Below are positions 10,892-14,396 of a DNA stretch of 15,471 nt, one piece after another. Numbering within the stretch: position 1 is the stretch's first letter; the number at the start of each line of letters is the position of its first letter. The translations under genes and the position numbers were made by a program. A model generated the notes under the pieces. That model was not told the DNA's origin and ran no database searches. It saw nothing but the letters and a program-made list of their open reading frames with translations. The DNA comes from an uncultured Bacilli bacterium (GTDB taxonomy: Bacteria; Bacillota_I; Bacilli_A; RF39; UBA660): NCBI GenBank assembly GCA_947630945.1, contig CANRJN010000033.1, positions 1-15,471 of the forward strand. Direction: 5' to 3'.

Positions 10892-12520
10892 TTATCCCCC
10901 TAATTGTAATTTCTTTATAGCTACTTGTTCTAATCTTTTTTCATTTCCCTGTGCATATAAGGAATTAAATATTGATTCAAACTCAGGTCCTATTTTTGAT
11001 ACAAAACTTCTTACTTTATCATAGTTTTCTTCATCTACTTGTGATAAATTTACTGCTGTTAAATATAATGATGCTGTATTTAATAATGCTATGTCTTCTA
11101 ATGTGTATTTGTCTTGTAATACTCCTTCTAATGTTATTACCTCTTGATTACAAAATTCTACAAATTCATTTGTTATATCTTCTCCTACTAGTGATCTTAT
11201 CATTTTTGGATTTCCTGTCTTATATAACATCTTTGATGCCATTTCCCATTTCCTTGGATCTGCATTTGGTTTTTCTCCTGTATATTTACTTCTAAGTGAT
11301 CTTCCACCTGTGTATGCAATATATGCACATATTGCTGGGTGTATATTATTTTCACTTGCCCACTTTAACCAACCATCTGGTGTTGTTTTTATATATACAT
11401 GAGCAAATCTATTAAATAATGGTTCTGCAAGTTGATTTGCTGCGAGTGAATCTTTCATTTCATTTCCTGCAGCTACTATTCTTGCATTATCTGGTAGTTT
11501 CCATATTCCATTTACTTCTTTATCTAATATTATATTAAAAGCAATACCTTGAATACTTGGAAGAGCATTTGTAATTTCATCAAAAAATACAATGTGTAAT
11601 TTATCTGGTTCACTCTCACAAATATTCTCTAATTTTTTAAGCCAAGATGGTTTAATATCAATCATTTCATGAGTATCTTGATTATACACACTTTTTCCAT
11701 TTAAACTTTCAGGACTTGAATTTCTTAAATATATTATTATTGCATTTGGATCAATTTGTTTTACTCTTGAACTTTTTCCTTCACTTGAAGGTCCATGTAA
11801 AAATACTGCTACTCCACTTTCAATAGATCCTTTAATTATTTCTTCTTCACTTACTGAATCAAACGTTAAATTATATGGATTCTGTTTAAAATTTCTTTCT
11901 TTATTTGTATTTTTCACTATACTATTAGTCTTTTTTGATGATAATGAATTATCTAAACCTAAATCTTTTATCATATAATTATCTAAATATTCTTTCATTA
12001 CTGTTGCAGAAAAATTGCCATCATAATCTTTATCTTTTGACTGAAATGGTATACCAGATAAAAGACATCTTTTAGATATTAAAGTTTTAGTTTTTCTATC
12101 TATTAACCATCTAACAGGCGATACTTTTATCCATATTCTGCCATAATCTGTATATAATTTTCCATCTGATAATATAAATGGTTTAATAACATATTTATTT
12201 GTTCCTGCTTTTATTGAACTTGCTGACTCTATTCTAATATATTTTTTATTATTATATTCGTATTCATCATAATTAATAGGTTGAAATCCTTTAGAATCAT
12301 CAACATTTGCTTTATTAAAAGTATAATTTTTACCTGTTTTTTTCATATTACCATCATGATATTCATTCTCTAACACTTCTTGAATATCAGAATCTGGAAC
12401 ATATTGTGGATATTCACCAAGTTCTACTTCTTCACAATCATTATATCCACGTATAATACTGATTAGTAAATTGATGAATTTGCAAATCATTGATTTATTA
12501 GTATAATAATTTTTAATCAT
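10892..12520 (-). CDS. AAA+ ATPase of the AAA_5/MoxR-like type with an N-terminal ~230-aa DUF6273-like (N-half) domain
   Basis: Motifs: Walker A FLHGPSSEGKSS, Walker B LHIVFFDEITNA, sensor-1 RIVAAGNE, LFNRFAHV. The N-terminus has LGEYPQ...PVRWLIDRKTKTLISKRCLL...FSATVMKEYLDNY, resembling the first half of DUF6273. There is no RBS upstream of the tracked ATG. The frame stays open upstream to 12556, into or adjacent to the IS110 element. Confidence 0.8.
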   Translation of the reverse strand: MIKNYYTNKSMICKFINLLISIIRGYNDCEEVELGEYPQYVPDSDIQEVLENEYHDGNMKKTGKNYTFNKANVDDSKGFQPINYDEYEYNNKKYIRIESASSIKAGTNKYVIKPFILSDGKLYTDYGRIWIKVSPVRWLIDRKTKTLISKRCLLSGIPFQSKDKDYDGNFSATVMKEYLDNYMIKDLGLDNSLSSKKTNSIVKNTNKERNFKQNPYNLTFDSVSEEEIIKGSIESGVAVFLHGPSSEGKSSRVKQIDPNAIIIYLRNSSPESLNGKSVYNQDTHEMIDIKPSWLKKLENICESEPDKLHIVFFDEITNALPSIQGIAFNIILDKEVNGIWKLPDNARIVAAGNEMKDSLAANQLAEPLFNRFAHVYIKTTPDGWLKWASENNIHPAICAYIAYTGGRSLRSKYTGEKPNADPRKWEMASKMLYKTGNPKMIRSLVGEDITNEFVEFCNQEVITLEGVLQDKYTLEDIALLNTASLYLTAVNLSQVDEENYDKVRSFVSKIGPEFESIFNSLYAQGNEKRLEQVAIKKLQLGG

Positions 12521-12543
12521 TTTTATAAAAATGATTAAAAATT
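12508..12543. repeat. Perfect 36-bp palindrome covering the ATPase start codon
   Basis: AATTTTTAATCATTTTTA|TAAAAATGATTAAAAATT is an exact reverse complement of itself. Positions 12507 and 12544 no longer pair. Confidence 0.95.
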
Positions 12544-12544
12544 T

Positions 12545-12713
12545 ACGCGGTTGAGTTTAGGCAAATTATAACAGGGGTTTTCATATCCATTGAAATGACG
12601 GCCTAGCTCTTTTCTTTTTATGTTCCTAGTTTTAGAATGTGAGAATTTATTTCTATATAACAAGCGTGATGAGGAGTAAGAGGTTAAAAAGAGTTCAATC
12701 GTAAAATGAAAGG
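12545..12713 (+). ncRNA. Candidate IS110 bridge RNA (non-coding left end upstream of the recombinase)
   Basis: Locally elevated G+C (ACGCGG, CAGGGG, GACGGCCTAGC, GCGTGATGAGGAG) in an otherwise ~20% GC window, with no ORF. A possible long-range helix pairs 12605-12613 (AGCTCTTTT) with 12687-12695 (AAAAGAGTT). The position matches where IS110-group elements encode their guide RNA. Confidence 0.45.
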
Positions 12714-13904
12714 ATGGTGCTTATGCACAATTGTTTAGCTATTGATGTAGCTAAAGGCAAAAGTATGGTTACTTTAATTAGTTCTTGTGGTGAAGTTCTA
12801 ATTAATCCATACGAAATTAATCATTCTATTAATGATTTTTCTAATTTACTTAATAGAATTAAAAAATTAAAATTAGATAATGTTTCTGTAATAATGGAAT
12901 CTACTGGTATTTATCATAAACCTGTTGAAAGATTTTTCTTAGAAAACAATTTCAAAGTTTTTGTTATTAATCCCATTTATGGAAAAATGCAAAAAAGGAA
13001 TATTAGAAAGACTAAAACTGATAAAGAAGATTGTTTTAATTTAGCTAATCTATTTTTTACTAATGCTTTTAAACAATATAATAAACCAGATAAGTTATAT
13101 TTAGATTTGAATGCTTTATCTAGACAATATTTTGCTTTGGATGAATTATGTGTAAATATTAAGAATAGGTATCGTAATCTACTTTATTTATGCTTTCCTG
13201 AATTTGAAAAAATATTTAAAGGCAATACAATTTATTCTAATCTTGCTTTAGAATTTATTGAAAAATATCCTCATGCTGATATTATTTCTAATACTAGAAT
13301 AGATAAATTACAGAATTTCTTTAAAAAACATGAATTTAGATACTGGAAGAAAAAGGCATCTATGATTAAAGAATTTGCTTTTAATTCTTACCCATCTGTT
13401 AATGAGAATGATGAACTTGTTTCTAACTTATCACAAATAGCTGGATTAATTATTGAGTATCAAAAATCAATCGATATAATTAAATATAAAATTATTTTTC
13501 TAGCAAAGAAAACTAAATATTTTGATTCTATTAATTCTATATTTGGTGTTGGTGAATTTACTACTTCTATTATTATTGCTGAGTTAGGTGATATTAATAG
13601 ATTTCATAATATTAAAGAATTAACTGCTTATTGTGGTTTAGATCCATCTATTAAACAATCAGGAAAGTCTATTAATGTTCATGGCCCTATTTCCAAATCA
13701 GGAAATAAATATATTAGAAAAATCTTATTTATTATTTGTTTAAATATTATTAAACTATCTTCTAAATGCCATAATGAAAATGATATTGAAATTTATTACA
13801 GAAAAAAGCGTAACGAAGGTAAACATCATTACGCCGCAACAATTGCTTGTACAACTAAACTTCTTCGACAAATTTTAGCTTTGTGTAAGCAATTAGATAA
13901 GTAG
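12714..13904 (+). CDS. IS110-family transposase/recombinase (DEDD RuvC-like N-domain plus Tnp C-domain)
   Basis: The N-terminus CLAIDVAKGKS...IMESTGIYH is typical of the DEDD_Tnp_IS110 domain. The C-terminus has FGVGEFTTSIIIAELGDINRFHNIKELTAYCGLDPSIKQSGKS (Transposase_20-like). The likely true start is the ATG at 12723, which has 9-nt spacing from AAAGGA. Confidence 0.9.
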   Translation: MVLMHNCLAIDVAKGKSMVTLISSCGEVLINPYEINHSINDFSNLLNRIKKLKLDNVSVIMESTGIYHKPVERFFLENNFKVFVINPIYGKMQKRNIRKTKTDKEDCFNLANLFFTNAFKQYNKPDKLYLDLNALSRQYFALDELCVNIKNRYRNLLYLCFPEFEKIFKGNTIYSNLALEFIEKYPHADIISNTRIDKLQNFFKKHEFRYWKKKASMIKEFAFNSYPSVNENDELVSNLSQIAGLIIEYQKSIDIIKYKIIFLAKKTKYFDSINSIFGVGEFTTSIIIAELGDINRFHNIKELTAYCGLDPSIKQSGKSINVHGPISKSGNKYIRKILFIICLNIIKLSSKCHNENDIEIYYRKKRNEGKHHYAATIACTTKLLRQILALCKQLDK

Positions 13905-14006
13905 TTACACCACATAACTACATTTAAATTATATACCAAATCAACACATTATTTCTAATTTTTTTAAAAAATAGAAATCTCGTGTGTTTTTGTTGTGTCT
14001 ATAATA

Positions 14007-14396
14007 TCACAAATATTTATGCTTGACAAATCTTAGAATGTCATTAATTTTGTTTCTCCATAATAAGTCAAATATATCAGGATTTTTTATAATTGGTCTA
14101 ATAGCAACTTGACGAAAAAATTGTAATGTAGAACCCATATTACCTGCTTCATTACCAATTATAATATTGCCAAGGATATCAGAAGATTGTGTAAAATATG
14201 AACATGTTCTACCTTTCATACTACCATCATCTGGTATACGATTAATCTCAAAGCTATATGAACCACCAGTTAATATTGCTAAATCACTTATAGCAGCAAT
14301 TGTTCCATATTTTTCTAATACTTCTAATTTTTTATTTTCCCATATTTCTTCTTTAAGTAAAGTTAATCCCTCATTACTATTCATATTTTCATCCAC
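14007..14396 (-). CDS. Small protein resembling the C-terminal half of a DUF6273-like domain
   Basis: LTLLKEEI..., ...AAISDLAILTGG..., ...GRTCSYFTQSS... and ...GNEAGNMGSTLQFFRQVAIRPII follow the order of the VFLLS / T.YA..G / WWLRS / VRPA motifs. The tracked start is GTG (14396). The ATG at 14384 (MNSNEG...), preceded by GGTGGA, is more likely. The last ~10 codons may overlap the IS110 right end. Confidence 0.5.
   Translation of the reverse strand: MDENMNSNEGLTLLKEEIWENKKLEVLEKYGTIAAISDLAILTGGSYSFEINRIPDDGSMKGRTCSYFTQSSDILGNIIIGNEAGNMGSTLQFFRQVAIRPIIKNPDIFDLLWRNKINDILRFVKHKYL

Follow-up and report, generated by a model that had tools for sequence, protein, structure and literature searches.

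An IS110-group insertion sequence of a gut Bacilli lineage with a candidate bridge RNA in its left end and apparent targeting of extended -10 boxes

Results

An IS110-family element interrupts a host gene

The window analysed here, a stretch of 15,471 nucleotides from an uncultured Bacilli bacterium (GenBank assembly GCA_947630945.1, contig CANRJN010000033.1), contains an insertion sequence (IS) of the IS110 family that spans 12450-14043 and is 1594 bp long with one CA counted, as defined by an empty site in a related genome (Table 1). Upstream of the recombinase ATG at 12723 lies a non-coding left end of 273 bp (12450-12722). The initial annotation had allowed this leader 169 bp, which proved too short because the IS also includes, left of 12545, a 36-bp palindrome and two promoter elements. 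The leader was rightly described as devoid of coding capacity, no ORF of at least 60 aa being present in 12545-12713, and the G+C enrichment ascribed to it does exist, if modestly, at 33% in 12540-12712 and 33.5% in 12595-12764 against 23.5% for the genome.

The encoded recombinase, of 393 aa like most of its homologues, matched the Pfam families PF01548 (5.1e-28) and PF02371 (5.3e-21) and aligned with the IS621 transposase (PDB 8wt6) with an E value of 6.4e-15, the D, E, D..D and SG motifs being aligned and in register (IDVAK/IDTAK, ESTG/EATG, KTDKEDC/KTDTVDA and QSG/ESG). Its relatives number thousands in gut metagenomes, rabbit and ruminant samples included, many of them 83-97% identical, and 59 loci were fetched from genome and metagenome contigs for comparison of the IS. 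No second copy of the IS was detected in the 85%-complete metagenome-assembled genome (MAG) by DNA search or with the covariance model R1 described below. L035, L077 and many other contigs of 1.5-1.6 kb consist of the IS as a stand-alone contig of near-exact IS length, as is expected because a multi-copy repeat breaks assemblies, and the copy numbers of this IS in MAGs, the 'single copy' reported here included, are probably underestimated. One further locus, L065 (CANPVK010000004.1), is a rearranged or deleted copy in which about 600 nt separate the first 52 nt of the left end from the remainder downstream and a 54-nt right-end fragment directly follows about 40 first codons of the recombinase.

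Ends of the element and the core dinucleotide

Homology between the window and at least 40 copies in unrelated flanks always starts at 12440 and ends near 14044, and every copy shares ATTATAnCACG at the left boundary, so that the element was initially read as starting at 12440 with an AT core. In the sister genome G069 (contig C14), the corresponding gene is uninterrupted and reads ...CAATC-ATTATATC-CA-TTAATTTTG..., with flanks 94-100% identical to those in the window. Because of this empty site, positions 12440-49 can be assigned to host DNA and CA is the only sequence common to both junctions. Comparison of the occupied with the empty site showed that CA alone is duplicated, with no other target duplication, and CA is present at both junctions in the tabulated relatives whose junction lies on the contig. 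The left target (LT), ATTATATC, resembles the guide-specified ATTATAn with one extra C, and the relatives carry ATTATAn at this place. The two IS ends, CGTATAAT... and ...TTAGAATGT, are not inverted repeats of each other, and terminal inverted repeats are absent. The ends of the IS were thereby fixed from multiple copies, as the initial annotation had advised, and the 9-mer to which it had drawn attention falls at a junction.

If the core were AT and the IS began at 12440, the ATTATAn-CA found in the target loop of the RNA (see below) would be a bottom-strand handshake with the element's own left end and not a target guide. The sharing of ATTATAnCACG by all copies would fit such a reading, and the host gene stays in frame whichever core is taken. 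However, the empty site contains ATTATATCCA, which refutes an AT core, and L038 and L039, two copies from one genome, differ at the n alone, that is, by one difference in 1600 positions, located at LT position 7, the base before CA. Furthermore, an AT core would place the -35 and -10 elements of the junction promoter 25 nt apart, whereas with CA they are exactly 17 nt apart in all relatives with both ends; with CA, moreover, the 9-mer ends at the core and TG is in register in both right-type guides. The AT core was dropped because of the empty site, the single difference between L038 and L039 and the 17-nt junction spacing, and we now give it next to no probability; CA is taken as the core hereafter.

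The position of these ends changes the local annotation. One minus-strand gene of 636 codons is split by the IS into 10892-12449 and 14044-14396, the halves of which had appeared as ORFs 10892-12520 and 14007-14396. An intact copy is present in G069:C14 (L089:2585-3083), and orthologues of 631-648 aa were found in G071 and G029. The first 24 codons of the '542-aa ORF' (12520-12449), the ATG at 12520 included, consist of IS sequence plus the core copy, and since the 36-bp palindrome lies inside the IS and forms a hairpin in other copies, ATG 12520 is not the start of a host gene. The palindrome and ATG 12520 are therefore reassigned to the IS and the two flanking ORFs to one gene.

Table 1. Features of the insertion sequence and its flanks, in window coordinates
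Feature	Position	Strand	Evidence or remark
IS110-family insertion sequence, between two core copies	12450..14041	+	blastn against at least 40 copies in differing contexts; empty site
Left target (LT), host DNA, ATTATATC	12440..12447	+	present once in the G069:C14 empty site
Core dinucleotide CA, left copy	12448..12449	+	single CA between LT and RT in the empty site
TATAAT, -10 of putative circle-junction promoter	12452..12457	+	17 nt from TTGACA after circularisation
Internal promoter-like site, TTGCAA, 16 nt, TATAAT	12480..12507	+	promoter scan, 10/12 matches; conserved in copies
Conserved hairpin, here a perfect 36-bp palindrome	12508..12543	+	self-match; paired changes in copies
Bridge RNA structured core (predicted)	12547..12702	+	single-sequence fold, RNAalifold, pair counts, model R1, compensatory changes
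Closing stem P1	12547-54/12695-702	+	bridge RNA core
Target arm P2	12559-62/12601-04	+	bridge RNA core
Left target guide ATTATAA (12565-71) and core-matching CA (12572-73)	12565..12573	+	equals LT plus core
Target arm P3	12575-78/12585-88	+	bridge RNA core
Right target guide TTGAAA (12590-95), core-binding TG (12596-97), putative handshake guide AC (12598-99)	12590..12599	+	right-flank complementarity
Donor arm P4	12606-18/12678-94	+	bridge RNA core
Donor arm P5	12624-27/12672-75	+	bridge RNA core
Left donor guide TTAGAATGT	12632..12640	+	identical to 14033-41; covaries with right end
Donor arm P6	12642-45/12651-54	+	bridge RNA core
Right donor guide CG (12665-66), core-binding TG (12667-68), putative handshake guide AT (12669-70)	12665..12670	+	covariation with left end
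Recombinase gene, 393 aa, DEDD RuvC-like and Tnp domains	12723..13904	+	Pfam; IS621 alignment
TTGACA, -35 of putative circle-junction promoter	14023..14028	+	invariant in listed right ends
Left donor (LD), last 9 nt of right end	14033..14041	+	right-end comparison across copies
Core dinucleotide CA, right copy	14042..14043	+	empty site; relatives
Right target (RT), host DNA, TTAATT	14044..14049	+	2/6 match to own right target guide

A predicted promoter at the circle junction

The TTGACA of the right end had been correctly located, and proposed as the -35 half of a circle-junction promoter, in the initial annotation, which had found no properly spaced -10 for it; the missing partner is the TATAAT of the left end, reached across the circle junction. 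Joined in silico, the two ends read TTGACA, 13 nt, CA, 2 nt, TATAAT, a consensus sigma-70 promoter with a 17-nt spacer, and the arrangement TTGACA-N13-CA-N2-TAnnnT is kept in every relative with both ends, down to 41% protein identity. The junction sequence itself, TTAGAATGTCAYGTATAAT, was absent from 98 fetched loci and from viral contigs.

Between the -10 of the internal promoter-like site and the bridge RNA lies the conserved hairpin, which in other copies shows the paired variants AATCA/TGATT, ACTCA/TGAGT, ACTTA/TAAGT and AACTT/AAGTT as well as short TTACTCT/AGAGTAA forms; it is probably a 5'-terminal stem-loop of the transcript. Transcripts would be expected to begin near 12464 if made from the junction promoter and near 12514 if made from the internal site. 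At the other end of the element, between the recombinase stop and TTGACA, an A/T-run inverted repeat (TTTCTAATTTTTTT / AAAAAATAGAAA, 13951-13978) is conserved as a self-match in several copies and may be a terminator or a protein site. On the minus strand, reading outward from the left end, a TTTACT within 12450-12471 lies 18 nt (here 19) upstream of the retained host TATAAT and might replace the lost -35 of the downstream gene; the corresponding AGTAAA is conserved among close copies and was not seen in the one distant relative checked by eye (L081).

The left end is predicted to encode a conserved two-armed RNA

The predicted RNA consists of a closing stem and two arms with one internal loop per arm, and its core (12547-12702) lies upstream of the recombinase gene, so that the arrangement of the IS1111 subgroup, with the non-coding RNA downstream, which the initial annotation had named as an alternative, does not apply. 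Among 37 distinct close copies (alignment A1), 98% of the pair cells are standard pairs against 39-58% in slid controls, and both-side changes occur in 6 pairs against 0.8 in shuffles (0/500). The long-range helix proposed initially between 12605-12613 and 12687-12695, with 8 Watson-Crick pairs and one G-U, corresponds to helix 4 of this structure.

The covariance model R1, built from A1, matched full-length in the nine distant relatives tested (41-52% protein identity) with E values from 4e-6 to 7e-16, the matches lying upstream of the recombinase. In a second alignment, A2, which was fitted to the model and hence favours structure, 95.4% of the cells are paired, the shuffles giving 77.6%; of the 40 pairs in this model-fitted alignment, 32 changed on both sides and still pair (17.2±1.9 in shuffles), and each of the seven helices has, in the same model-fitted alignment, at least 3 such pairs. 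The comparative support for a fold that the initial annotation had called for is thus provided by both alignments. With the family model, the RNA of the copy in the window obtained 185.8 bits, a value inside the range spanned by other copies. A search for a known bridge RNA with covariance models, also suggested at the outset, found no Rfam family: nothing in the window reached the gathering score, and the matches in 12400-12760 were at chance level only (E>1). A further pairing, of 12579-83 with 12591-95, forms in the RNA of the window and was rejected as not general across copies.

Guides of the donor-binding loop

In IS621, the left guides have top-strand sense and the right guides are complementary, both include the core, and each right guide is followed by a 2-nt handshake guide that pairs with positions 6-7 of the non-cognate DNA (PMC11208160). 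For comparison with IS621 we used Durrant et al. 2024 (PMC11208160), Hiraizumi et al. 2024 (PMC11208158) and PDB 8wt6.

The 9-mer TTAGAATGT occurs at 12632-12640 and 14033-14041, as first noticed, and nowhere else in the window. It had been suggested to be a guide segment, with the caution that a single 9-mer could be chance, and this caution was justified: when the window was shuffled with its dinucleotides preserved, the 9-mer was present at least twice in 12 of 200 shuffles, and on its own it is not significant. It gains significance only with the relatives, because the internal segment and the right-end terminus change together, to TTAGATAGT in L052, L081 and L084, AGATAGT in L009 and L010, AGATAAT in L015 and AGAAAG in L060 and L061. 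The internal segment forms part of the 5' strand of the second internal loop (the donor-binding loop) and recurs as the terminal 9 nt of the right end, directly before the CA core; it is accordingly placed as the left donor guide of the IS621 model. It carries no match to the first core base, having G against the expected C.

On the 3' side of the same loop, CG-TG (12665-68) complements the CA-CG at 12448-51, and the right donor guide and the first two IS bases change in concert through five variants (CG/CG, TG/CA, AG/CT, GG/CC and TA/TA). The putative handshake guide AT of the donor loop pairs with the A-n of the target only where n is a T, and pairing with its own donor, which in IS621 is inhibitory, is likewise available to it.

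Guides of the target-binding loop

The left target guide, on the 5' side of the target loop and in the same sense as the left flank and core, equals the left junction in 43 of 43 copies if position 7 and a few isolated mismatches are disregarded. Guide and flank covary at position 7 (permutation p=0.001, optimistic since the copies are related), 6 of the 7 non-A cases matching, and in L009 and L010 guide and flank have both switched to AAATTA-CA. No left target guide was indicated at 12579-84 or elsewhere when column covariation and sliding 7-mers were applied to the 7 nt left of 12440 (best z 2.7-3.0), because the bases so tested lie beyond the real left target; by eye, position 12564 bears no relation to the base left of ATTATA.

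Near-identical copies differ strongly in their 6-nt right target guide, which is hypervariable. In 30 copies, it is complementary to the core and right flank at a mean of 5.43/7 positions, against 3.83±0.20/7 for permuted flanks, none of 10000 permutations reaching the observed value (the copies are related, so that this p is optimistic), and for the five flank positions alone the values are 3.57 and 2.18. Columns 12594 to 12591 covary with the flank positions in antiparallel order, along a diagonal, with z of 3.4-5.5. The right end terminates in GT, to which the putative handshake guide AC of this loop is complementary, a relation only partly kept in L060, L061 and L015. Complementarity of the loops to target and donor flanks around a shared core, which the initial annotation had anticipated, was thus found, with CA as the core.

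A different account of these correspondences is that the left end is a transcribed leader with a promoter, and that the 9-mer and ATTATA-CA are subterminal repeats bound by the recombinase. A left-type guide repeats the sequence of the DNA that it addresses, and two protein-binding sites would covary alike; the 9-mer alone is within chance, and the RNA itself is a prediction from sequence. The right-type guides, however, are reverse complements of the DNA that they address, and one of them covaries with host flanks that the IS does not carry, the other with the two bases that open the IS, as five variants show. In addition, the seven helices keep their pairing through compensatory changes that DNA sites for a protein do not require, and the layout matches that of IS621 position for position. 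We therefore regard binding sites for the recombinase as a very improbable explanation and interpret the four segments as RNA guides.

Insertion sites resemble extended -10 boxes

Read on the opposite strand, the sequence ATTATAn-CA specified by the left target guide becomes TGnTATAAT, which is an extended -10 box. The genome contains 464 TGnTATAAT sites, 28% of which are followed by a ribosome-binding site (RBS) and start codon within 25 nt, against 4-8% for control motifs in the same genome. By the same 25-nt criterion, 30 of 41 independent left flanks of IS copies lie just upstream of an RBS and start codon, and in most of the remaining ones the start codon is slightly further on. The lineage thus apparently inserts at extended -10 boxes and leaves a copy of the box before the downstream gene. 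Since CA is duplicated, the downstream gene retains TGnTATAAT after insertion, which would preserve its expression. A search of the literature for IS110 elements that target TATAAT or -10 boxes returned nothing relevant.

Inspected by eye, the right flanks are rich in A and in many cases continue into a hairpin, which would be a terminator on the other strand. In L072, L069, L032, L080, L008 and L081, an A-run is followed by a GC-containing hairpin, which on the opposite strand resembles an intrinsic terminator with its T-tract ending at the insertion point, and the U-rich right target guides CUUUUA, UUUUUG and UUUUCA fit such A-run flanks.

The copy in the window occupies an imperfect site

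For the copy in the window, a 1-nt bulge is needed to fit the left flank to the guide (ATTATAT-C-CA), the right flank matches the copy's own right target guide at 2 of 6 positions, and a perfect cognate target (15/15) is absent from the assembled genome. This copy thus looks to be at an imperfect, off-target site inside a coding sequence, and off-target insertion would explain why it sits inside a gene. Half-match off-target insertions have been described for IS621 (bioRxiv 10.64898/2026.08.31.748434), and the site found here resembles them.

The same poor match could instead have arisen by drift after insertion, were the element a decayed or immobile relic with an intact yet nonfunctional RNA gene. 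The single copy in the 85%-complete MAG, the agreement of guide and right flank at 2 of 6 positions only and the lack of a cognate 15/15 target in the genome are what a relic might leave. On the other side, the 393-aa ORF is full-length with its catalytic motifs, the RNA scores as well against the family model as those of other copies, and the flanks are still 94-100% identical to the empty site of the sister genome, which suggests recent insertion; the extra C, moreover, belongs to host DNA and was already present in the empty site, so that it is not due to drift. A relic is on balance unlikely, and we favour a recent off-target insertion.

Discussion

In this study, an IS110-group insertion sequence was delimited in an uncultured gut Bacilli bacterium, and we consider it highly probable that its left end encodes a bridge RNA that guides insertion in the manner of IS621, apparently at extended -10 boxes. 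The candidate bridge RNA first suggested for this leader is supported by the defined IS ends, by a covarying fold and by guides lying where the IS621 model puts them; at the level of sequence, comparison among copies establishes the core and the fold, where the IS ends, and that each of the four guides covaries. Transcription, circle formation and RNA-guided strand exchange are proposed by analogy. Following IS621 (PMC11208160, PMC11208158), the IS would excise as a circle whose junction forms TTGACA-17 nt-TATAAT, and this junction promoter would drive both the RNA and the recombinase. The RNA-bound DEDD/Ser recombinase would then pair the circle junction with a target made up of ATTATAn-CA and 6 further nt that the right target guide specifies and, as in IS621 (PMC11208160, PMC11208158), exchange strands at CA.

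Judged by its sequence, the bridge RNA is an ordinary member of the IS621-type class, except that one guide appears to be aimed at the -10 box of host promoters. As in IS621, the RNA is located in the left end, upstream of a DEDD+Ser recombinase, and has two internal loops, each with a left guide on the 5' side and a complementary right guide on the 3' side; the left target guide comprises 7 nt plus the 2-nt core, and putative 2-nt handshake guides follow the right guides. The circle junction would likewise unite a right-end -35 with a left-end -10, and insertion takes place at the core dinucleotide with no other duplication. The differences are several: the core is CA here and CT in IS621; the recombinase is distant (E 6.4e-15 over a partial alignment) and has 393 aa, where the solved chain has 328; the first core base is left unmatched by the left donor guide; and an internal promoter and a conserved 5' hairpin are additional here. 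While the natural target of IS621 is a REP element, that of the present lineage is an AT-rich TGnTATAAT promoter box, and unlike in IS621 the right target guide has 6 nt and is hypervariable between near-identical copies. The closing stem P1, predicted here to join the two arms, may be a further difference from IS621.

The ISCro4 transposase (PDB 9t56) was the second solved IS110-family recombinase to match the Tnp domain (E 2.4e-11), the C-terminal domain alone being aligned in this comparison of proteins. In IS1111-group elements (PMC11208160), reportedly described also by Siddiquee et al. in 2024, the seekRNA or bridge RNA lies downstream of the recombinase. The element reported here shares with that group the recombinase family and RNA-guided pairing with target and donor; it differs in that the RNA is 5' of the gene, and not in the right end 3' of the gene, and nothing but the -35 and the donor sequence is present in its own right end. 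Mycobacterial IS110 elements of the IS900/IS901/IS902 type insert in one orientation at translation-initiation signals, between the ribosome-binding site and the start codon. Oriented insertion by gene-expression signals, immediately upstream of a host gene, is common to these elements and to the lineage studied here, whereas the site is an extended -10 box in the present case, a choice for which the RNA guide would account.

Bridge RNAs underlie a new class of programmable recombinases, and each resolved natural example adds design rules. The guide map presented here comprises four guides, the core, a putative handshake guide of the target loop and a predicted junction promoter; its source is a gut Bacilli lineage of very high A+T content (23.5% G+C), and the core in use is CA. 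The hypervariable 6-nt right target guide provides a natural retargeting series across dozens of near-identical copies. We lean slightly towards the view that this is a promoter-seeking lineage, in which the left guide is fixed on the reverse complement of TGnTATAAT, the right guide alone diversifies and downstream expression is largely spared. If this is true, the IS homes to promoters and cuts them downstream of the -35 region and before the TG, an unbroken extended -10 box joined to IS sequence stays in front of the downstream gene, and near-identical copies retarget by mutating six RNA bases. Homing to -10 boxes, if confirmed, would represent an RNA guide tuned to a regulatory consensus of the host.
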